A model generated the notes under the pieces. It saw only the letters and a program-made list of their open reading frames with translations, was not told the DNA's origin and searched no databases. 64,000 bases of DNA from Escherichia coli (GTDB lineage: Bacteria > Pseudomonadota > Gammaproteobacteria > Enterobacterales > Enterobacteriaceae), in NCBI RefSeq assembly GCF_013122565.1, contig NZ_CP053258.1; one strand, written 5' to 3'. This document shows positions 6,748 through 59,204 of the stretch, piece after piece. The position numbers and the translations under genes were made by a program. The stretch's first letter is position 1; every line of letters starts with the position of its first letter.

Positions 6748-7806
6748 TTACCCTTTGCGATGGCCGTAGACGCGCGGACGCGTGTAGTAATCGATCAGAG
6801 GAACCGTGATGTTCGCCAGCAGGACGGCAAAAGCCACGCCGTCAGGATAGCCGCCGAAACTGCGGATCAACCAGACCAATAAGCCCGCCAGCGCGCCGAA
6901 AATAAGACGACCACGATTGGTCGTAGAAGCGGTAACCGGGTCAGTCAAAATAAAGAATGCGCCGAGCATGGTCGCTCCAGACAGCAGATGAATTTGCGGT
7001 GCTGCCAGTGTTTCTGGTGAGAACAACCAGCCCAACGTTGCGCATAACGCCAGCGTTACTAAGAAGCTGAGGGGAATATGCCAGCGAATCGCTTTCTGCC
7101 ATAGCAACCACACCCCGCCAGCCAGCCAGGCGAGATTTACCCATTGCCAACCAGCGCCCGCCAGCATACCGCTGTAGATCGGATATTGCATAATCTGTTC
7201 AACCGAATGACCGGCACGGACAGAGGTTTTAAATGTATCCAGCGGTGTCGCCTGACTAATGCCATCAATACCTAAGCGTAGTGTGTTCATATCACCACCA
7301 CTGGCGGTATGCCCGCTGAAAATAACCTGTATGGCGTCGATAAAACCAGGGATGTTGACCGCAATTTCATGTGGCGGTAACCAGCTGGTCATCTGCACCG
7401 GGAAGGAGATCAGTAAGACCACATAACCAACCATTGCCGGATTAAATGGGTTTTGCCCCAGACCGCCATACAACTGTTTAGCGATGATCACCGCAAACAC
7501 CGTACCCAGCACGACCATCCACCATGGCGCGAGGGGGGGAATACTTACCGCCAGCAATAAGCCTGTCAGCAATGCTGAGTTATCTTTCAACGTTGCGGCT
7601 ACCGACTGCTTGCGTAGTTTGAGTACGAGAGCTTCGGCTAACAGAGCACTAACCGATGCCAACAGGATCTGAACGAGAGTACCCCAACCAAAAAACCACA
7701 GTTGCGCTGCGATTCCTGGCACGGCTGCGAGCAACACCAACAGCATAATGCGCGATGTCTGGCGCTGGTTATGGGTATAAGGGGAGCTAGCTATTCTGAA
7801 TACCAT
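6748..7806 (-). CDS. rsxD: Rsx/Rnf complex subunit D
   Basis: 352-aa polytopic membrane ORF, operon context. Confidence 0.9.
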
Positions 7807-51648: not shown

Positions 51649-52263
51649 CTATCGAAACAGCGGTTTAACCGCGACAGGAATTAACAGTTGTGATTGCCAT
51701 TGCGCCAGCGTTAAGCGAGCCAGTTCACCCAGTGCACGGTAGAAAGGGTGTTCTGCTTTTTCGATAAAAACATCAAGAAAACGTGTTGACCACGGAAAAA
51801 GGTGCCATGCCAGCAATTCTTCGCATTCTGTCTGGCGACCATTCTCCGCCAACCACGCAGCCATCAACAGCAGCGAACCAAAATGATCTTCCGGTTCATT
51901 TTGCTTCATTTCAAACTGAATGCCTTTCTCGCGCATCCACTGACGAAGTGCCAATGTTGAATCGCCAAACAGCACAGATTCGCGATCCAGCCAGACCGAC
52001 CCCCACGGCGGAGACGGCAGTGCCCACGGGCCGACAAACAAACGCTGCCAGGCCTGGGCGTGAGTCTCTTCACACTGTGCCTGAAAAGCCGTCACCAGCG
52101 GCGCTAATGACGCTTCTGGTAGAGGCCACTGAGTTTCCCAGCCGTCACGGGTGAGTACCGCAACCAGAGGTGCGGCTTCCGCACTCTCTGGAGCGTAATA
52201 AAACAGCGCGCCCAACACGCGCGCCACGACAGAAAAATTATCTTGCTGTGAAAAATGGGTCAT
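51649..52263 (-). CDS. dmsD: Tat proofreading chaperone for DMSO reductases
   Basis: 204-aa product (MTHFSQQDNFSV...). Confidence 0.9.
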   Translation of the reverse strand: MTHFSQQDNFSVVARVLGALFYYAPESAEAAPLVAVLTRDGWETQWPLPEASLAPLVTAFQAQCEETHAQAWQRLFVGPWALPSPPWGSVWLDRESVLFGDSTLALRQWMREKGIQFEMKQNEPEDHFGSLLLMAAWLAENGRQTECEELLAWHLFPWSTRFLDVFIEKAEHPFYRALGELARLTLAQWQSQLLIPVAVKPLFR

Positions 52264-52305: not shown

Positions 52306-53160
52306 TTAACCTGCAATAGCCATTCCTACCGTCATGTGCAGGCCATAAAAGAGCACACGCCCGATCATCTCACCGCCAAGAATGAGGATTAACCCCAGAA
52401 TAAGTCCGGCAACGTGTGGTTCACGGCGACGTATGAGCGGACAAAGCCAGCATCCTAGACCTGCGCATAACAATACCACACGCCAGACCTGTAAGGAGGC
52501 GTAATCTGGTACCAGTGCGCTGGCTTGTTGTACGGATGAGTAAATAGACGACAGAGACAAACCTTGCAGCACAATCACCCCGGCACAAGCGATCAGCGCC
52601 AGAACGCTAATGATGGCAAATGGTGTGGTATTAAATGTAACGCGGGCTGCCCGCAGAATTGCGGCAGCAAGTATTGGACCACTCAACAATACCGTCAGGA
52701 AGAAAGCCAGCGTAGTGTAACCGTTATGCCAGGTTGGCACAGTGTCGATTTGATACACGCAGGTCATCATCCAGACGAAAATGACGCCGAGCGCCATGCT
52801 GACAAGTAACCAGAGTTTCCCCAACGCTTGCGGCATTTTACCGATGACCGCCACCAGCCACCATAGTCCGCCAACGGCAAAAAATATGGAACCGGCAGCA
52901 ATCTCGTTACTCAGACCAGAAGCTCCGATTCGATTCAGTGAGTTAAACGCCCGCAGTGGCGATCCCAGGTGCATGACAGAGGCAATAAACCCGATGCCCA
53001 TCAACAGCCAGAGGAAAAACATGCCACGAACAATGTGCTGACGGTCTGTGTCATTTTTGGCGGCGAACCAGCCAATTCCGCTAACAATCAGCGCGCCTAC
53101 TACGCATTGACCCAATACGGTAAAGATAACCAGTGGCCATTCATGCCATCCATTTCCCAT
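52306..53160 (-). CDS. ynfH: DmsC-type membrane anchor subunit of the Ynf oxidoreductase
   Basis: 284-aa product from ATG 53160 (MGNGWHEWPL...); the track ORF is extended upstream. Confidence 0.88.
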   Translation of the reverse strand: MGNGWHEWPLVIFTVLGQCVVGALIVSGIGWFAAKNDTDRQHIVRGMFFLWLLMGIGFIASVMHLGSPLRAFNSLNRIGASGLSNEIAAGSIFFAVGGLWWLVAVIGKMPQALGKLWLLVSMALGVIFVWMMTCVYQIDTVPTWHNGYTTLAFFLTVLLSGPILAAAILRAARVTFNTTPFAIISVLALIACAGVIVLQGLSLSSIYSSVQQASALVPDYASLQVWRVVLLCAGLGCWLCPLIRRREPHVAGLILGLILILGGEMIGRVLFYGLHMTVGMAIAG

Positions 53161-53161
53161 T

Positions 53162-53779
53162 TTACACTTCCTCCGGATTAGCCAGATAACCAGTGGTATC
53201 GCCGGTCGGGCGGCTGTTGGCGTTAGGTTTGATAACGATATTGGGTTTTGTGAAATGCGCGCGCGGCAGTGGCGCGACGGCAGCAAGAGTGCCGTGCTTC
53301 TGGCGCAGCTCTTCAATTGGACCGAACTCAAGTGCACGCAGCGGGCAGGATTCGACACATATGGGTTGTTTCCCCTCGGCGACGCGCGAATAACAACCAT
53401 CGCACTTCGTCATGTGCCCTTTTTCAGCATTGTACTGTGGCGCGCCGTACGGACAAGCCATGTGGCAGTAGCGGCAACCGATACAAACATCTTCATCAAC
53501 CACCACAAAGCCATCTTCACGCTTATGCATTGCGCCGCTGGGGCAGACTTTTGTACATGCGGGGTCATCGCAATGGTTACAGGAGATGGAGAGATAATAA
53601 GCGAACACGTTCTGGCGCCAGACGTCATTATCTTCCTGCCAGTCGCCGCCAGCATATTCATAAATACGGCGGAAACTGACTTCCGGGCCAAGATCTTTAA
53701 AATCTTTGCACGCCAGTTCGCAGGTTTTACAGCCAGTACAGCGGCTGGAATCGATAAAAAATCCATATTGTGTGGTCAT
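53162..53779 (-). CDS. ynfG: DmsB-type 4Fe-4S electron-transfer subunit
   Basis: 205-aa ORF with four ferredoxin Cys clusters. Confidence 0.92.
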   Translation of the reverse strand: MTTQYGFFIDSSRCTGCKTCELACKDFKDLGPEVSFRRIYEYAGGDWQEDNDVWRQNVFAYYLSISCNHCDDPACTKVCPSGAMHKREDGFVVVDEDVCIGCRYCHMACPYGAPQYNAEKGHMTKCDGCYSRVAEGKQPICVESCPLRALEFGPIEELRQKHGTLAAVAPLPRAHFTKPNIVIKPNANSRPTGDTTGYLANPEEV

Positions 53780-53789
53780 GGGCTACTCC

Positions 53790-56213
53790 TTAAACCTTTT
53801 CGATCTGAACAAGATTGCTGTGCGACGGGTTTCCCTTTGCCAGCGGTGAAGGGCGGTGAGAGGTCAGAATATTGATACTGCCGCCGTGATCGACCCGGTC
53901 ACCAAACATATCCGCTTTAAGCCACGCACCTTGCCCGATGGCGGTAACGCCAGGCAGAATACGCGGAGTCACTTTTGCGGCAATCAGCATTTCTCCATTA
54001 TTGTTAAATACCCGCACGGTATCGCCATGACGGATACCGCGTTCCTGAGCATCAATGGGGTTGATCCACACCTCTTGTGGGCAGGCCTGCTGTAACACAT
54101 CAATATTGCCGTAGCTGGAGTGGGTACGTGCTTTGTAGTGGAAGCCCGTTAGCTGCAGTGGATAGGTTTTCCGCAGGGGATCGTCCCAGCCATCAAAACC
54201 TGGGGTATACGCAGGAAGGGGATGAATAATTTCATCTTTTTTCAATTCCCAGGTATCTGCAATCTTCGCCAGTCGTTCAGAATAAATTTCGATTTTCCCC
54301 GAAGGTGTTTTCAACGGGTTTGCCTGTGGATCTTCACGGAATGCGCGGAAAGCGACGTAGTGTTCTTCCGGGCATTTTTTCTTAAAGATCCCGGTCGTTT
54401 TCATCTCCTCGTAGTCGGGCATCTCAGGGTTACGTTCCTTCGTTTTCGCATGGAGATATTTGATCCATTCATGCTGACTGCGACCTTCAGTAAAGGTTTG
54501 ATAAACGTCCGGTCCTAAGCGTTTGGCGACTTCACTCAGCATCCAGTAGATGGGTTTGCGTTCAAATTTTGCTGAGGTTGCGGGTTGGGCGAGGATCACA
54601 TAGCCCATATTCCCTGCAGATTCATGAGAGATAAGGTCTTCTTGCTCTGTTGGCATCAGGTCGGGCAACAGGATATCGCAATACTTAGCCGAGGCCGTCA
54701 TGAAGTGGTCAATGCCGACAATCATCTCGCACTTGCTGTCATCCTGAAGCACCTCATGGGTGTGATTGATGTCGCCATGTTGATTGATCAATGTGTTACT
54801 GGCGTAGCACCATAAAAACTTGATGGGGACATCCAGTTTTTCTTTTCCACGAACACCATCACGGGTCGCGGTCATTTCCGTACCATGGTCGATGGCATCT
54901 GTCCATGTAAAGACGGAAATCTGCGTTTTAACAGGATTGGCTAGCATCGGGAACCATTCTACCCCCAGATCCCAGCTACCTTCGCGTACACCTGAGTTGC
55001 CGCCGTTTATGCCGACGTTACCGGTGAGAACGGAAAGCATGGCAATAGCGCGGGACGTTTGTTCGCCGTTGGAATGTCGTTGTGGCCCCCAACCCTGACA
55101 AATATAAGCAGGTTTTGCTGAACCGATCTCTCGTGCCAACTGGATAATTTTTTCTGCCGGGATGCTGGTGATTTTTGCTGCCCATTCCGGCGTTTTAGCT
55201 ATGCCGTCAGGCCCTTCGCCCAGAATATAGGCTTTATAATGCGCGTTACGTGGTGCGTTGGCGGGCAGCGTTTTTTCATCGTAACCAACACAATATTTGT
55301 CGAGAAATGGCTGATCGACCATGTTTTCAGTAATCAGTACCCAGGCAATCGCACAGGCCAGTGCGCCATCGGTGCCAGGGCGAATGGGCAGCCATTCATC
55401 TTCACGCCCGGCAGCTGTGTCGTTATAACGTGGATCGATGACGATCATGCGTGCGTTTGAACGTTCGCGGGCTTGCTCGACGTAGTAAGTGACACCACCA
55501 CCGCTCATCCGCGTTTCTGCCGGGTTATTTCCGAACATAACGACCAGTTTCGTATTGGCGATATCATCCGGGCTGTTGCCATCATTGGCACCGAACATAT
55601 AACTCATTGCGGCACTGATCTGTGCGGTACTGTAGCTGCCATAGCGACTGAGAAAACCACCGCAAGAGTTCATCAGACGGTACGGGACGTTTGAGTTGGT
55701 GATGTTTCCGCCATCTACACCTGTTCCGTACAGGACATGTACAGCCTCATTGCCGTAATCTTTTAGGATCCGCCGAAGATTATCACTGATGGTATCCAGG
55801 GCTTCGTCCCAACTTATCCGTTCAAATTTACCTTCACCGCGCTTGCCGACGCGCTTCATGGGATATTTCAACCTATCAGGATGATTCATCCGTCGGCGGA
55901 TAGAGCGCCCGCGTAAACACGCACGAACCTGATGATTACCGTAGACGTCGTCACCTGTCGTATCAGACTCCACCCAGTACACGGTGTCATCTTTCACATG
56001 CAAACGTAACAGACAGCGGCTCCCGCAGTTAACGGTACAGGAACTCCAGACCGCTTTCTCTTCTACCGGGGCCTCTGCCGCCCGGACCATTTGGGAAAAT
56101 GGCAGAGTGAAAGCACTGCTTGCCAGCGCAAGACTGCCAAGTGCGGAGGTTTTCATCAGACTTCTACGGCTGATTTCAGCCTTCATGAGCGCCTCTGTGG
56201 TATGGATTTTCAT
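53790..56213 (-). CDS. ynfF: DmsA-type molybdopterin oxidoreductase catalytic subunit with Tat signal
   Basis: 807-aa product; twin-arginine motif SRRSLMK near the N-terminus. Confidence 0.92.
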   Translation of the reverse strand: MKIHTTEALMKAEISRRSLMKTSALGSLALASSAFTLPFSQMVRAAEAPVEEKAVWSSCTVNCGSRCLLRLHVKDDTVYWVESDTTGDDVYGNHQVRACLRGRSIRRRMNHPDRLKYPMKRVGKRGEGKFERISWDEALDTISDNLRRILKDYGNEAVHVLYGTGVDGGNITNSNVPYRLMNSCGGFLSRYGSYSTAQISAAMSYMFGANDGNSPDDIANTKLVVMFGNNPAETRMSGGGVTYYVEQARERSNARMIVIDPRYNDTAAGREDEWLPIRPGTDGALACAIAWVLITENMVDQPFLDKYCVGYDEKTLPANAPRNAHYKAYILGEGPDGIAKTPEWAAKITSIPAEKIIQLAREIGSAKPAYICQGWGPQRHSNGEQTSRAIAMLSVLTGNVGINGGNSGVREGSWDLGVEWFPMLANPVKTQISVFTWTDAIDHGTEMTATRDGVRGKEKLDVPIKFLWCYASNTLINQHGDINHTHEVLQDDSKCEMIVGIDHFMTASAKYCDILLPDLMPTEQEDLISHESAGNMGYVILAQPATSAKFERKPIYWMLSEVAKRLGPDVYQTFTEGRSQHEWIKYLHAKTKERNPEMPDYEEMKTTGIFKKKCPEEHYVAFRAFREDPQANPLKTPSGKIEIYSERLAKIADTWELKKDEIIHPLPAYTPGFDGWDDPLRKTYPLQLTGFHYKARTHSSYGNIDVLQQACPQEVWINPIDAQERGIRHGDTVRVFNNNGEMLIAAKVTPRILPGVTAIGQGAWLKADMFGDRVDHGGSINILTSHRPSPLAKGNPSHSNLVQIEKV

Positions 56214-56273
56214 CATTACTCACTTATTGCTTTTCAAACAAAATGTCATGCCAGAATTTATGGTTGTAGTGGG

Positions 56274-58700
56274 TTATATTTTTTCGATCTCGACCAGATT
56301 CGTGTGCTGCGGGTTTCCCTTCGCCAGTGGTGAAGGGCGCAGAGTGGTTAGCGTATTCACACAGCCTCCATGGTCGATTTTATCGCCAGACATATTGGCC
56401 TCATGCCAGGCTCCCTGGCCCATAGCGCTAACCCCAGGGAGAATGCGTGGTGTCACTTTGGCTGGTAGCCGAACTTCGCCACGATGGTTAAACACCCGCA
56501 CCATATCGCCGTTGGCAATCCCACGTTTCTGTGCATCTATAGGGTTGATCCACACCTCCTGACGGCAGGCAGCCTTCAGGACATCAATGTTGCCGTAGGT
56601 CGAGTGAGTACGGGATTTGTAATGGAAACCAAACAGTTGCAGTGGGAAGGTACTACGTTCAGGGGAGTCCCAGCCTTCAAAGGTTGAGGCATAAACCGGC
56701 AGTGGGCTTATCACTTCATCTTTTTCCAGTTCCCAGGTACGGGCAATTTCCGCCAGCTTGCTGGAATAAATTTCAATCTTACCGGAAGGCGTTTTAAGTG
56801 GATTTGCCTCGGGGTCGTCACGAAATGCTTTGTAGGCGACAAAATGACCATTGGGATCTTTACGCTTATAGATACCCATTTTTTTCAGTTCGTCGTAAGA
56901 CGGTAACGCCGGATCTTTGGCAAGCATTTTGGCGTACAGATGTTGTAACCATTGTTCCTGCGTGCGACCTTCTGTGAACTTTTGATAGACGTCAGGTCCA
57001 AGACGTTTCGCGACTTCACTCAGGATCCAGTAAATCGGTTTACGTTCGAATTTTTCGCTGGTGACTGGCTGGAGGAAAATGAGATATCCCATGTTACCGG
57101 CGTAGTCGTTAGGAATAATATCTTCCTGCTCAACGGTCATCAGGTCTGGCAGCAGAATGTCGGCATATTTTGCCGATGAGGTCATAAAGTTTTCGATGAC
57201 CACAATCATTTCGCATTTCGATTCGTCTTGCAGAATTTCATGCGTTTTGTTGATGTCAGAATGCTGATTAACGAGGGTATTTCCCGCGTAGTTCCAGATA
57301 AACTTAATGGGCACATCCAGTTTATCTTTGCCCCGGACACCGTCGCGGAGTGCCGTCATTTGCGGGCCATGATCGATAGCATCCGTCCAGCTGAAGCAGG
57401 AGATTGACGTTTTGACCGGATTATCCAGCACCGGTAGGCGTTCTATCGTAATGGTATAGGTCGATTCACGCGCGCCACTATTTCCGCCGCTGATGCCGAC
57501 ATTGCCCGTCAAAATAGGCAACATAGCAATAGCGCGTGCGGTCAGCTCACCGTTTGCCTGGCGTTGCGGCCCCCAGCCCTGGCAGATATAAGCGGGTTTT
57601 GCTGTGCCAATTTCACGAGCCAGCTTGATGATACGGTCCACCGGGATACCGGTAATTTGCGAAGCCCACTGCGGCGTTTTCGCTGTTTTATCATCACCTT
57701 CACCAAGAATATAGGCTTTATAGTGACCATTTTTTGGTGCATCTGCGGGTAAGGTTTTTTCGTCATAACCGATGCAGTATTTATCGAGAAAAGGTTGATT
57801 AACGAGATTTTCGTTAATCAATACCCAGGCAATACCCGCCACCAGCGCGGCATCGGTGCCCGGGCGAATAGGGAGCCATTCGTCTTCACGACCGGCAGCC
57901 GTATCGGTATATCGCGGATCGATAACAATCATTTTTGCGTTCGATTTTTCGCGCGCTTTTTCAAGAAGATAAGTGATGCCACCGCCGCTCATACGTGTTT
58001 CTGCCGGGTTGTTACCAAACATCACGACCAGCTTGCTGTTTTCGATATCCGTGGTGCTGTTGCCATCATTACTGCCGTAGGTGTAGGGCATGGCACAGGA
58101 AATTTGCGCAGTGCTGTAGGAGCCATACTGGTTGAGTGAACCGCCGTAGCAGTTCATCAGACGTTTGACCGCCGAGGCGGATGGCGATGAGCGGGTCATA
58201 TTGCCGCCAACGATCCCCGAAGAGTACTGAATATATACAGCCTCATTGCCATATTGTTCGACGGTTTTTTTCAGGCTACTGGCGATAGTATCCAGGGCTT
58301 CACCCCAGCTAATCCGTTCGAATTTGCCTTCGCCGCGTTTGCCCACGCGTTTCATTGGATAATTCAAGCGATCGGGATGATTAATACGCCGACGGATGGA
58401 GCGACCGCGCAAACAGGCGCGTACTTGATGATTGCCATACTCATCGCTGCCGGTGTTGTCAGTTTCCACCCAGGTCACTTCATTATCTTTAACATGTAGA
58501 CGAAGTGCACAGCGGCTACCACAGTTGACGGAACAGGCACCCCAGACCACTTTTTCGCTGGCCTGTTGTACCGCTGCCGCTGCACTGCGCAGGGTGAACG
58601 GTAAAGAAAAACCGCCTGCAGCCAGCGCCAGAGAACCTATCGCGGTAGATTTAACGAGTGTTCTGCGGCTGATGCCCACCATTTGTTCATTTTTGGACAT
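56274..58700 (-). CDS. ynfE: DmsA-type molybdopterin oxidoreductase catalytic subunit (selenate reductase) with Tat signal
   Basis: 808-aa ORF; twin-arginine motif SRRTLVK; paralogue of ynfF. Confidence 0.92.
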   Translation of the reverse strand: MSKNEQMVGISRRTLVKSTAIGSLALAAGGFSLPFTLRSAAAAVQQASEKVVWGACSVNCGSRCALRLHVKDNEVTWVETDNTGSDEYGNHQVRACLRGRSIRRRINHPDRLNYPMKRVGKRGEGKFERISWGEALDTIASSLKKTVEQYGNEAVYIQYSSGIVGGNMTRSSPSASAVKRLMNCYGGSLNQYGSYSTAQISCAMPYTYGSNDGNSTTDIENSKLVVMFGNNPAETRMSGGGITYLLEKAREKSNAKMIVIDPRYTDTAAGREDEWLPIRPGTDAALVAGIAWVLINENLVNQPFLDKYCIGYDEKTLPADAPKNGHYKAYILGEGDDKTAKTPQWASQITGIPVDRIIKLAREIGTAKPAYICQGWGPQRQANGELTARAIAMLPILTGNVGISGGNSGARESTYTITIERLPVLDNPVKTSISCFSWTDAIDHGPQMTALRDGVRGKDKLDVPIKFIWNYAGNTLVNQHSDINKTHEILQDESKCEMIVVIENFMTSSAKYADILLPDLMTVEQEDIIPNDYAGNMGYLIFLQPVTSEKFERKPIYWILSEVAKRLGPDVYQKFTEGRTQEQWLQHLYAKMLAKDPALPSYDELKKMGIYKRKDPNGHFVAYKAFRDDPEANPLKTPSGKIEIYSSKLAEIARTWELEKDEVISPLPVYASTFEGWDSPERSTFPLQLFGFHYKSRTHSTYGNIDVLKAACRQEVWINPIDAQKRGIANGDMVRVFNHRGEVRLPAKVTPRILPGVSAMGQGAWHEANMSGDKIDHGGCVNTLTTLRPSPLAKGNPQHTNLVEIEKI

Positions 58701-58799
58701 AACTCACTCCCTGTTCTTTATCGTTATATAAAAGTTTATATATTGAATATTTAGCGCGCTAATAATAGAGGGAGTCTACCCATTTTGGGTTAAGAGTTA

Positions 58800-58813
58800 T
58801 TAATCCATATCAA
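58800..58813. promoter_or_regulatory. FNR-like site upstream of ynfE
   Basis: TTAAT-ccat-ATCAA against consensus TTGAT-N4-ATCAA, about 100 bp upstream of the ynfE ATG. Confidence 0.4.
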
Positions 58814-58898
58814 TAGAAGGGTATGAGTAATAAGGTGGGATTATGTTGTATGTTCAAATCGCCGGATGTGTCGTATCCGGCGTTCAGTCGATAATGTA

Positions 58899-59204
58899 TT
58901 ACTGTGGTTCGGCAGGCGCGCCATCCTGGGTAGACTGCGCGGGAGCAGAGACGTTACCGCTGGTGGTGCGGGTGTAGAGAATTTTATGCGTATCATTAGC
59001 GCAATGCCCGACGACCTGGGAATCAGGCTGATCAACCTGGTCATTGGGTACAATACTTAACGTGAAGCTGCTTTCGGGTACGCCATTATTGATAATGCGC
59101 TGTGATATATCGCTCTGTATGCGCTCACAGGATCCCGGCGCGGCGAGTACCGCGGGTGAGGCGAGGGCGAGCAGAAGCGTGGCACAGCAGGTTGAGAGTT
59201 TCAT
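58899..59204 (-). CDS. ynfD: DUF1161-family secreted protein
   Basis: 101-aa product with signal peptide (MKLSTCCATLLLALASPAVLA). Confidence 0.8.
   Translation of the reverse strand: MKLSTCCATLLLALASPAVLAAPGSCERIQSDISQRIINNGVPESSFTLSIVPNDQVDQPDSQVVGHCANDTHKILYTRTTSGNVSAPAQSTQDGAPAEPQ

Follow-up and report, generated by a model that had tools for sequence, protein, structure and literature searches.

Tandem ynfE and ynfF of an Escherichia coli ynfEFGH-dmsD operon are diverged, independently evolving paralogues that are only rarely fused in register

The ynfEFGH-dmsD locus

We analysed a 64,000-nucleotide stretch of Escherichia coli DNA (contig NZ_CP053258.1; hereafter the window) in which two genes for catalytic subunits lie in tandem on the minus strand. 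The promoter-proximal gene, ynfE, occupies positions 56274..58700 and its paralogue, ynfF, positions 53790..56216; each is an ORF of 2,427 nt (808 aa, counted for ynfF from the first ATG). RefSeq starts ynfF one codon downstream (56213; 807 aa), and the REL606 ynfF CDS is 2,424 nt. An earlier note on this DNA gave these ORFs exactly and named them as tandem ynfE/ynfF, paralogues of DmsA type, a naming borne out by NCBIfam models and by the RefSeq annotation of syntenic loci. The 56274..58700 product scores 1793 bits against the selenate_YnfE model (NF041885; cutoff 1675) but only 1473 against selenate_YnfF (NF041884; cutoff 1650), while the 53790..56216 product scores 1773 bits against the YnfF model and only 1481 against the YnfE model. 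YnfE and YnfF also pass TIGR02166 (1285 and 1392 bits, respectively; cutoff 778), and Pfam PF04879, PF00384 and PF01568 match a protein identical to the window YnfE, as well as the YnfF adjoining it.

In the alignment of YnfE with YnfF, an N-terminal cysteine cluster (C-x3-C-x3-C...C) is present in both proteins, as CSVNCGSRC...ACLRG and CTVNCGSRC...ACLRG. This cluster appears to be of the [4Fe-4S] FS0 type and, with the predicted molybdopterin and molybdopterin-dinucleotide-binding (Mo-bisPGD) domains, places both proteins among the DmsA/YnfE/YnfF DMSO-selenate reductase A subunits. Both N-termini read ISRR-x-L-x-K, then GSLALA, then LPF; the twin-arginine signals ISRRTLVKSTAIGSLALAAGGFSLPF and ISRRSLMKTSALGSLALASSAFTLPF align with VSRRGLVKTTAIGGLAMASSALTLPF of DmsA and are, by sequence, of the DmsD-binding type. 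The two Tat signals had been called similar, and both are indeed twin-arginine signals; however, the Tat regions are less alike than the genes on average, with 19/36 aa and 62/108 nt identical.

The ynfF stop codon lies 10 nt from the start of ynfG (53162..53779, minus strand), which encodes the Fe-S electron-transfer subunit (TIGR02951 DMSO_dmsB, 266 bits, cutoff 214; syntenic annotation). The membrane anchor gene, ynfH, spans 52306..53160 on the minus strand (284 aa as annotated); these coordinates are transferred from the REL606 annotation, and PF04976 (DmsC) matches the syntenic gene. In the ORF listing ynfH reaches upstream to 53400 (364 aa), and this 364-aa version has no match in NCBIfam. 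The Tat proofreading chaperone is encoded by dmsD (51649..52263, minus strand; NF008632, 346 bits, cutoff 162, match from ORF residue 4), and DmsD binds the signal peptides of YnfE, YnfF and DmsA (PMC5203670). Catalytic subunits, Fe-S subunit, membrane anchor and chaperone thus follow one another on one strand, and the RefSeq gene order at the syntenic locus is clcB-dmsD-ynfH-ynfG-ynfF-ynfE-ynfD-ynfC-speG.

Because a terminator scan finds no terminator-like hairpin in the 57-nt spacer between ynfE and ynfF (56217..56273, minus strand), the two genes are presumably co-transcribed. A combined sigma-70 and terminator scan of 56150-58950 returned no feature in the spacer or upstream of ynfE. A pattern search identified a candidate FNR half-palindrome, TTGATATGGATTAA, at 58800..58813 (minus strand), ~100 nt upstream of the ynfE ATG and with 9/10 consensus bases; since the window holds 6 such sites against 2.7 expected, this match is weak by itself. 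The ynfEFGH-dmsD operon is under anaerobic (FNR) control (PMC5203670).

The region therefore comprises ynfE and ynfF, encoding paralogous catalytic subunits of a membrane-bound, Tat-exported selenate/tellurate reductase, with enzymology and regulation taken from the literature. Selenate and tellurate reduction by these genes is described in PMC5203670, in PMC12724226 and in Fujita et al. 2021 as cited in PMC12096835. In Salmonella, YnfE and YnfF share 71 % identity, and selenate is reduced mainly by YnfE (PMC5203670); the two have been termed paralogous isoenzymes, and Enterobacter has a single-gene srnABCD (PMC12724226).

Divergence between ynfE and ynfF

According to the earlier note, the two genes share long runs of identical nucleotides and extended segments that are nearly the same. 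Alignment contradicts this. Globally, ynfE and ynfF are 68.9 % identical in nucleotides and 70 % in protein; across 100-nt windows the median identity is 70 % and the maximum 83 %, and third codon positions are just 47 % identical. The copies form colinear repeats at 72-77 % identity, with a spacing of 2484 nt that widens to 2496 nt in the 5' portion of each gene. The longest runs that they share exactly measure 17, 17, 15 and 15 nt, and 17 nt is the maximum in any register.

The first shared 17-mer, GGGTTGATCCACACCTC, lies at 54058..54074 in ynfF and 56542-56558 in ynfE; the second, AGAATATAGGCTTTATA, lies at 55222..55238 and 57706-57722, respectively. The 16-mer that had been quoted as an example of near-identity, GGTTGATCCACACCTC, does occur in both genes (at 54059 and 56543), but it is merely part of the first of these 17-mers. 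When the aligned codon columns were shuffled, the longest run was 20.5 +/- 3.8 nt and reached at least 17 nt in 91 % of shuffles (P = 0.91), so that the 17-mers are a product of amino-acid conservation alone. A shared 16- or 17-mer between paralogues that are 70 % identical is the chance expectation, and is no sign of near-identity. The similarity in DNA amounts to no more than protein conservation demands, and the short exact matches, 17 nt at most, lie within conserved peptide motifs.

Origin and age of the pair

At the 80 species loci surveyed, YnfE orthologues are 81-90 % identical. Beyond E. coli, the only loci with a tandem YnfF were those of Salmonella, C. amalonaticus and Pseudocitrobacter; most Enterobacteriaceae carry a ynfE-type gene only, and the two-gene arrangement is the exception. 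In a neighbour-joining tree with p-distance-type corrections, the YnfF clade was recovered in 100/100 bootstraps and fell outside the Enterobacteriaceae YnfE clade, although its sister group shifted between bootstraps. Nonsynonymous divergence (dN) between YnfE and YnfF of one genome is 0.21-0.23 in four species, compared with 0.08 between E. coli and Salmonella orthologues and 0.25 between YnfE and DmsA. We also tried to date the duplication by dS; however, orthologues of E. coli and Salmonella already differ with a pS of ~0.72, and with synonymous sites saturated at that distance dS cannot date the split of ynfE from ynfF. Judged by dN, the split would be ancient, roughly as deep as that from DmsA and predating the radiation of the Enterobacteriaceae. 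We are highly confident that ynfE and ynfF are an ancient, independently evolving pair of the FNR-controlled ynfEFGH-dmsD operon, stable apart from rare fusions at short homologies.

We consider it rather unlikely, though worth weighing, that ynfF is instead a fairly recent duplicate of ynfE, which arose in the ancestor of Escherichia, Salmonella and Citrobacter and passed through an early burst of neofunctionalisation, and not an ancient paralogue that has been lost often. The confinement of ynfF to four groups among the 80 species loci fits such an origin, as does the fact that YnfF is nearer to YnfE (71 %) than to DmsA (67 %). Moreover, at its 3' end and at the junction with ynfG, ynfF retains a Klebsiella-like tail of the ancestral single gene, as a tandem duplication would leave. 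However, the YnfF clade lies outside all Enterobacteriaceae YnfE, and even outside the YnfE of Serratia and Sodalis. Had YnfF gone through an early burst of divergence, this basal position could be due in part to long-branch attraction. Since the split of E. coli and Salmonella, YnfF has been the slower-evolving of the two (dN 0.054 vs 0.079 for YnfE), and any acceleration was therefore necessarily early and transient. A recent duplication would alter the age of the pair, not the conclusions on its present identity or on recombination.

Gene conversion and natural fusions

The pair had also been proposed as a substrate for gene conversion and homologous recombination. We looked for conversion in four ways: by windowed pS, by run length under codon shuffling, by the direction of allele sharing, and by a cross-species phylogeny with a dN table. 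Between ynfE and ynfF, pS is 0.70 overall and 0.59-0.91 across all 60-codon windows, with no tract of low synonymous divergence along the whole length. Alleles specific to the window relative to REL606 showed no excess bias towards the paralogue's type, and sharing was symmetric. Identity of YnfE to YnfF within a genome is ~70-71 % in E. coli, Salmonella, C. amalonaticus and Pseudocitrobacter, whereas orthologues are 88-92 % identical and group across species. With pS saturated and allele sharing symmetric, gene conversion finds no support; ynfE and ynfF evolve independently, without concerted evolution.

For RecA-type exchange in E. coli, the minimal processing segment is ~23-30 bp, as PMC8918686 gives it, citing Shen and Huang 1986. 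The identity tracts of ynfE and ynfF all fall below this length, which makes efficient RecA-dependent homologous recombination unlikely. Nevertheless, the proposal of a recombination substrate survives in part: a flank-joining search identified an in-frame, in-register ynfE'-'ynfF fusion in 10/5,426 complete E. coli genomes (0.18 %), and the pair is therefore a weak but real substrate. Two of the fusion genomes (H31 and H39) were read at single-base level, and the other eight (H32-H38 and H40) were assigned by their identical span, bit score and annotation. The fusions represent two clonal events with two junction types. In the JCC-EE7 type, the crossover lies in a 14-nt identity tract (sense AACCCGGCAGAAAC; ynfE 57997..58010, ynfF 55513-55526), and 650/655 diagnostic sites fit a single breakpoint. 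In the ECONIH4 type, the tract is at most 10 nt (AACGGCGA..; ynfE 57545..57554, ynfF 55061-55070), and 648/655 sites fit. One fusion protein was found again in 141 index blocks of independent assemblies, and a chimera that is YnfE over its 5' 47 % and YnfF over its 3' 53 % appears to be fixed in an E. coli clone that has been widely sampled. The chimeric proteins are WP_104457354.1 (ECONIH4 type) and WP_256683566.1 (JCC-EE7 type), and PGAP names the chimeras with a generic family name or as 'ynfF'.

Other candidates proved to be of a different kind. Among the flank-joined genomes, AZ191 joins ynfE nt ~885 out of register to ynfF nt ~330 and also carries SE15-type deletions, and FDAARGOS_1285 has ynfE cut at ~1071 nt and adjoining ynfG, with no in-register exchange. 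Partial hits such as SE15 (83 % coverage) were considered as possible ynfE x ynfF recombinants; alignment instead revealed two ynfF-internal deletions of ~580 and ~275 bp, which bear no relation to the 2484-nt register.

It is very improbable that ynfE and ynfF form a recombinationally active repeat, along the lines of the earlier note's reading, with near-identical segments driving frequent recombination or conversion that keeps the copies alike. The tandem, same-strand, in-register arrangement and the fusions themselves would accord with such activity; yet the fusions are rare and clonal, exact matches do not exceed 17 nt at 69 % identity, pS is at least 0.59 throughout, allele sharing is symmetric, and the identity of the two copies is constant in four species while orthologues are far closer. 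We favour a low-rate, short-homology exchange in register, which would remove 2,484 nt and leave one full-length ynfE'-'ynfF chimeric gene, restoring the one-gene operon layout typical of other Enterobacteriaceae. The exchange would proceed by RecA-independent slippage or annealing, or by rare homeologous recombination. The chimeras may be functional. We tentatively suggest, as a possibility to be taken seriously, that recurrent in-register exchange reverts the operon to its ancestral one-gene layout, that the clone-fixed chimera is perhaps a functional domain swap, and that such events, where the crossover falls at the very 3' end, could explain the patchy distribution of ynfF, including the lack of ynfF in E. 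whittamii and the C. freundii group. Natural in-frame YnfE-YnfF chimeras are also ready domain-swap material for asking why YnfE, and not YnfF, has most of the selenate-reductase activity.

Stability of the two-gene layout

The same two-gene layout is found in 5,126/5,426 complete E. coli genomes. The copies are nowhere near-identical over read- or k-mer-like lengths, and because they are 69 % identical in DNA there is no assembly risk; the assembly collapse raised in the earlier note is implausible with a longest exact match of 17 nt. That the two-copy structure, in whole or in part, is an artefact of a collapsed or falsely duplicated repeat has a negligible probability, since the copies differ at 31 % of positions, far past what any assembler would merge, each matches its own orthologue at ~98 % identity across thousands of complete genomes in which the pair is laid out and spaced alike, and an independent Logan assembly encodes this very YnfE protein among the same neighbouring genes. 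Judged by comparison with other genomes, the pair is stable and appears unambiguously assembled. The paralogues are too diverged for assembly or mapping trouble, and there is little consequence for this window.

Comparison with known systems

The tufA/tufB genes, rrn operons and IS copies are ~99 % identical over hundreds of nucleotides and undergo concerted evolution. Like these, ynfE and ynfF are paralogues in the same genome that could in principle pair ectopically; unlike them, they have 69 % identity, no exact match longer than 17 nt and no concerted evolution.

The srnABCD operon of Enterobacter cloacae is orthologous and has one catalytic gene, whereas the window has an extra ynfF between ynfE and ynfG. 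The Enterobacter loci surveyed have a single catalytic gene followed directly by a ynfG homologue. SrnA, which has ~86 % identity to YnfE, complements the loss of ynfEF in an E. coli deletion strain (PMC12724226).

DmsABC resembles the window system in belonging to the TIGR02166 DmsA/YnfE subfamily, in its DmsD-bound Tat signal and in its Fe-S and Mo-bisPGD architecture; its other subunits, DmsB and DmsC, are paralogous to YnfG and YnfH, respectively (PMC12096835), with which our profile matches agree. DmsA shares 67-68 % identity with YnfE and YnfF, but it is encoded elsewhere on the chromosome, by the sole catalytic gene of its system, and the window proteins score 1319 and 1341 bits, below the DmsA-specific cutoff of 1600.

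The closest counterpart is the ynfEFGH-dmsD operon of E. coli K-12/B, described by Lubitz and Weiner 2003, Guymer et al. 2009 and Fujita et al. 2021 as cited in PMC5203670 and PMC12096835. The window shares its genes, order, spacing, neighbours (clcB ... ynfD, ynfC, speG) and family assignments. Relative to REL606 the pair is 98.2 % identical in DNA, with allelic differences only (66 substitutions in ynfE and 22 in ynfF), and none of the 5,426 complete E. coli genomes matches the window lineage better than at 98.6-98.8 %. The ynfE/ynfF locus of the window is a known, ordinary operon that is already well described.

The ynfE/ynfF operon

The window carries two adjacent minus-strand open reading frames of 2,427 nt (808 aa) each, ynfE (56274-58700) and ynfF (53790-56216), and the frames that follow are identified by NCBIfam as YnfG (a DmsB-type Fe-S subunit) and DmsD. 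The NCBIfam models cleanly told the two paralogues apart: the upstream protein exceeded the cutoff in the YnfE model alone (1793 bits, cutoff 1675) and the downstream protein in the YnfF model alone (1773 bits, cutoff 1650). RefSeq annotation of E. coli REL606 and SE15 gives the syntenic order clcB-dmsD-ynfH-ynfG-ynfF-ynfE-ynfD-ynfC-speG-ynfB-ynfA-rspA. Because reading frames, NCBIfam and syntenic annotation agree, the gene identification and coordinates in the earlier note, a first reading made from the sequence alone, were correct. An FNR-like site (TTGATATGGATTAA, 58800-58813), found by sequence match, lies ~100 nt upstream of ynfE, and neither reading the 57-nt ynfE-ynfF spacer nor scanning it revealed a terminator. 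The spacer of Salmonella enterica subsp. arizonae (locus L018, about 7437-7530 in its own coordinates) is longer and carries a GC-rich inverted repeat, CTCCGGGGCG...CGCTCCCGGAG, which the window lacks. The operon is already known, and the divergence of its tandem paralogues is ancient.

Similarity of the two copies

Repeat detection placed ynfE and ynfF in colinear register, with segment identities of 72-77 % and the copies 2484 nt apart; toward the 5' end of the genes a four-codon indel widens the spacing to 2496 nt. The earlier note had described long, nearly identical stretches, which we did not find. Global alignment gave 68.9 % nucleotide identity (70 % for the proteins), identity in 100-nt windows was 70 % at the median and peaked at 83 %, and the longest exact runs common to both genes in any register were 17, 17, 15 and 15 nt. 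The 16-mer quoted as an example is indeed common to the two genes (54059 and 56543), where it lies inside a 17-mer. Common 17-mers are what amino-acid conservation would yield on its own: identity at codon positions 1, 2 and 3 was 78, 84 and 47 %, and shuffling the aligned codon columns yielded a longest run of 20.5 +/- 3.8 nt, with 91 % of shuffles reaching 17 nt or more. The Tat signals do have the RR motif, GSLALA core and LPF in common, but their similarity is below that of the remaining gene sequence (19 of 36 residues and 62 of 108 nucleotides identical), in agreement with a published remark on differing n-regions (PMC5203670).

Origin of the pair

We surveyed one genome per species and recovered 80 loci with YnfE orthologues (72-96 % identity). 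Among these, a tandem YnfF orthologue, 89-91 % identical to the window's YnfF, was found only in Salmonella (two subspecies), Citrobacter amalonaticus and Pseudocitrobacter. The two-gene arrangement is the exception among Enterobacteriaceae, most of which have one ynfE-type gene with ynfG 10 nt on, as in Klebsiella (e.g. K. pneumoniae, L083), Enterobacter, Kluyvera, the C. freundii group and Escherichia whittamii (L008, 5001-8055); Serratia has the same layout. Enterobacterales-type loci also turned up in records named Chryseobacterium sp. 18061 (L056, 84 % identity to the window's YnfE) and Martelella alba (L075, 78 %, clustering with Sodalis in the tree). The two labels stand for a Bacteroidota species and an alphaproteobacterium; these are probably mislabelled or contaminated assemblies.

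The 3' end of ynfF and its 10-nt ynfG junction (…GAAAAGGTTTAA-GGAGTAGCCC-ATG) are the same as the single-gene tail in Klebsiella and E. whittamii, while ynfE differs from that tail in its last codon and has a new spacer. Such a pattern is consistent with a single ancestral gene having been duplicated in tandem. In a DmsA-rooted neighbour-joining tree, YnfF sequences formed one clade in 100/100 bootstraps, outside the entire Enterobacteriaceae YnfE clade. Within-genome dN between ynfE and ynfF was 0.21-0.23 in all four species with both genes, compared with 0.08 for YnfE between E. coli and Salmonella, 0.13 between E. coli and Serratia, and 0.25 between YnfE and DmsA. We favor an ancient duplication followed by many losses, which is backed by both the tree and dN, although long-branch effects are possible in the tree; the other reading is that the gene was duplicated later and YnfF then diverged in an early burst. 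The E. whittamii gene, YnfE-type except for its last ~10 nt, represents either the ancestral state or a loss via crossover in the terminal AGATCGAAAA tract. The YnfF clade and the dN values in four species show that the copies have evolved independently over a very long time.

Recombination between ynfE and ynfF

The earlier note proposed the pair as a substrate for homologous recombination. PMC8918686 puts the minimal efficient processing segment of RecA-mediated exchange at roughly 23-30 bp in E. coli and describes mismatch repair as aborting exchange between diverged sequences; no identity tract near that length exists between ynfE and ynfF in any register, the longest being 17 nt. To see whether exchange occurs nonetheless, we built a query from 2.5 kb of each flank, left joined to right, and ran it against all complete E. 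coli genomes. Flank matches were merged only within 3 kb of each other, so that a genome needed to have lost about 1.9 kb or more at the locus. Fifteen genomes qualified. In eight (ECONIH4, six '0H' isolates and CAVP776) the span is 7,428 bp and the flanks enclose exactly one gene, of 2,427 nt, which PGAP names only 'DmsA/YnfE/YnfF family'. In two (JCC-EE 7 and CP137696) the span is 7,429 bp and the one gene, also of 2,427 nt, is annotated ynfF.

We assigned each of 655 strictly diagnostic positions to ynfE or ynfF, reading two of the ten fusion genomes (H31 and H39) base by base and assigning the other eight by identical span, score and annotation. Each fusion type showed one E-to-F switch. 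The ECONIH4 type resembles YnfE through nt 1146 and YnfF from nt 1157 onward (648/655 sites concordant), which confines the exchange to a tract no longer than 10 nt (57545-57554 in ynfE, 55061-55070 in ynfF). The JCC-EE7 type (650/655 concordant) switches in a 14-nt tract, AACCCGGCAGAAAC (57997-58010 and 55513-55526). Both junctions lie in conserved patches with 80-86 % local identity over +/-25 nt. The ECONIH4-type protein recurs with identical sequence and neighbors in 141 index blocks (ENA, NCBI and Logan assemblies), and the JCC-EE7-type protein is on four contigs; both are real alleles, not one-off assembly errors. From the tract lengths, the fusions may arise by short-homology deletion, probably RecA-independent, or by rare homeologous exchange. 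Since in-register fusions of two junction types occur in natural genomes, at about 0.18 % of complete E. coli genomes, the pair is a weak but genuine recombination substrate. These chimeras, like the restricted phyletic range of ynfF, are modest by-products of the analysis.

The remaining five genomes carry out-of-register or IS-associated deletions. FDAARGOS_1285 (L005, 2477-3547), in which ynfE is cut off at about nt 1071 and adjoins ynfG, and AZ191 (L006, 2504-4629), which joins ynfE nt ~885 out of register to ynfF nt ~330, are two further independent rearrangements. The operon is dispensable, with repeated losses: an ynfEF match was absent altogether from 104/5,426 complete E. coli genomes, and many genomes (e.g. 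H46-H70) carry a roughly 6.3-kb deletion of ynfE, ynfF, ynfG and part of ynfH, their flanks making up 71 % of the query over a span of about 3.5 kb. In SE15, internal deletions of about 580 bp and 275 bp make ynfF (L001, 3001-4570) a pseudogene and ynfE is intact, a state shared by other strains at 83 % coverage (e.g. H27, H28); what 'ynfF' expression studies measure in these strains may be a dead gene.

Gene conversion and assembly collapse

Gene conversion, also raised earlier, found no support. Nei-Gojobori pS between the copies was 0.70 (dS about 2, saturated), and no 60-codon window had low synonymous divergence, pS being at least 0.59 in each. The window and REL606 differ at 66 sites in ynfE and 22 in ynfF; the paralogue's base was carried by the window allele at 26 and 3 of these and by the REL606 allele at 23 and 7, giving no signal of directional bias toward the paralogue, and YnfF is one clade across species. 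By the same counts polymorphism in ynfE is three times that in ynfF. In the 500-nt bin at 57500, identity to REL606 is down to 95.8 %, with a peak of differences at 57500-58000, and SE15 ynfE is likewise divergent from REL606 (64 differences).

Assembly collapse is not supported either, because copies differing at 31 % of sites could not be merged by an assembler, and 5,126/5,426 complete E. coli genomes have the same uninterrupted two-gene layout. An independent Logan assembly (SRR11451224), the only one on record with the exact YnfE protein of the window, has the same neighbors around it. The window's best identity to any of the 5,426 genomes was 98.6-98.8 % (tested on 20000-44000 and 53790-58700); it belongs to an Escherichia lineage with few complete genomes. 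Region 20000-44000 matched each E. coli genome in a median of 22 places (up to 41) and must hold a dispersed repeat, e.g. a REP/BIME or IS-like element.

Comparison with characterized enzymes

The literature describes YnfE and YnfF as alternative catalytic subunits of the Mo-bisPGD/[4Fe-4S] kind, exported by Tat and partnered by YnfG (Fe-S) and YnfH (quinol-oxidising anchor). The signal peptides of YnfE and YnfF are bound by DmsD. Most selenate-reductase activity is YnfE's (PMC5203670), and PMC12096835, citing Fujita et al. 2021, also implicates the pair in tellurate reduction. The published 71 % identity between Salmonella YnfE and YnfF (PMC5203670) agrees with the long independent evolution found here, and Enterobacter SrnA, a single orthologue, complements an E. 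coli ynfEF deletion (PMC12724226).
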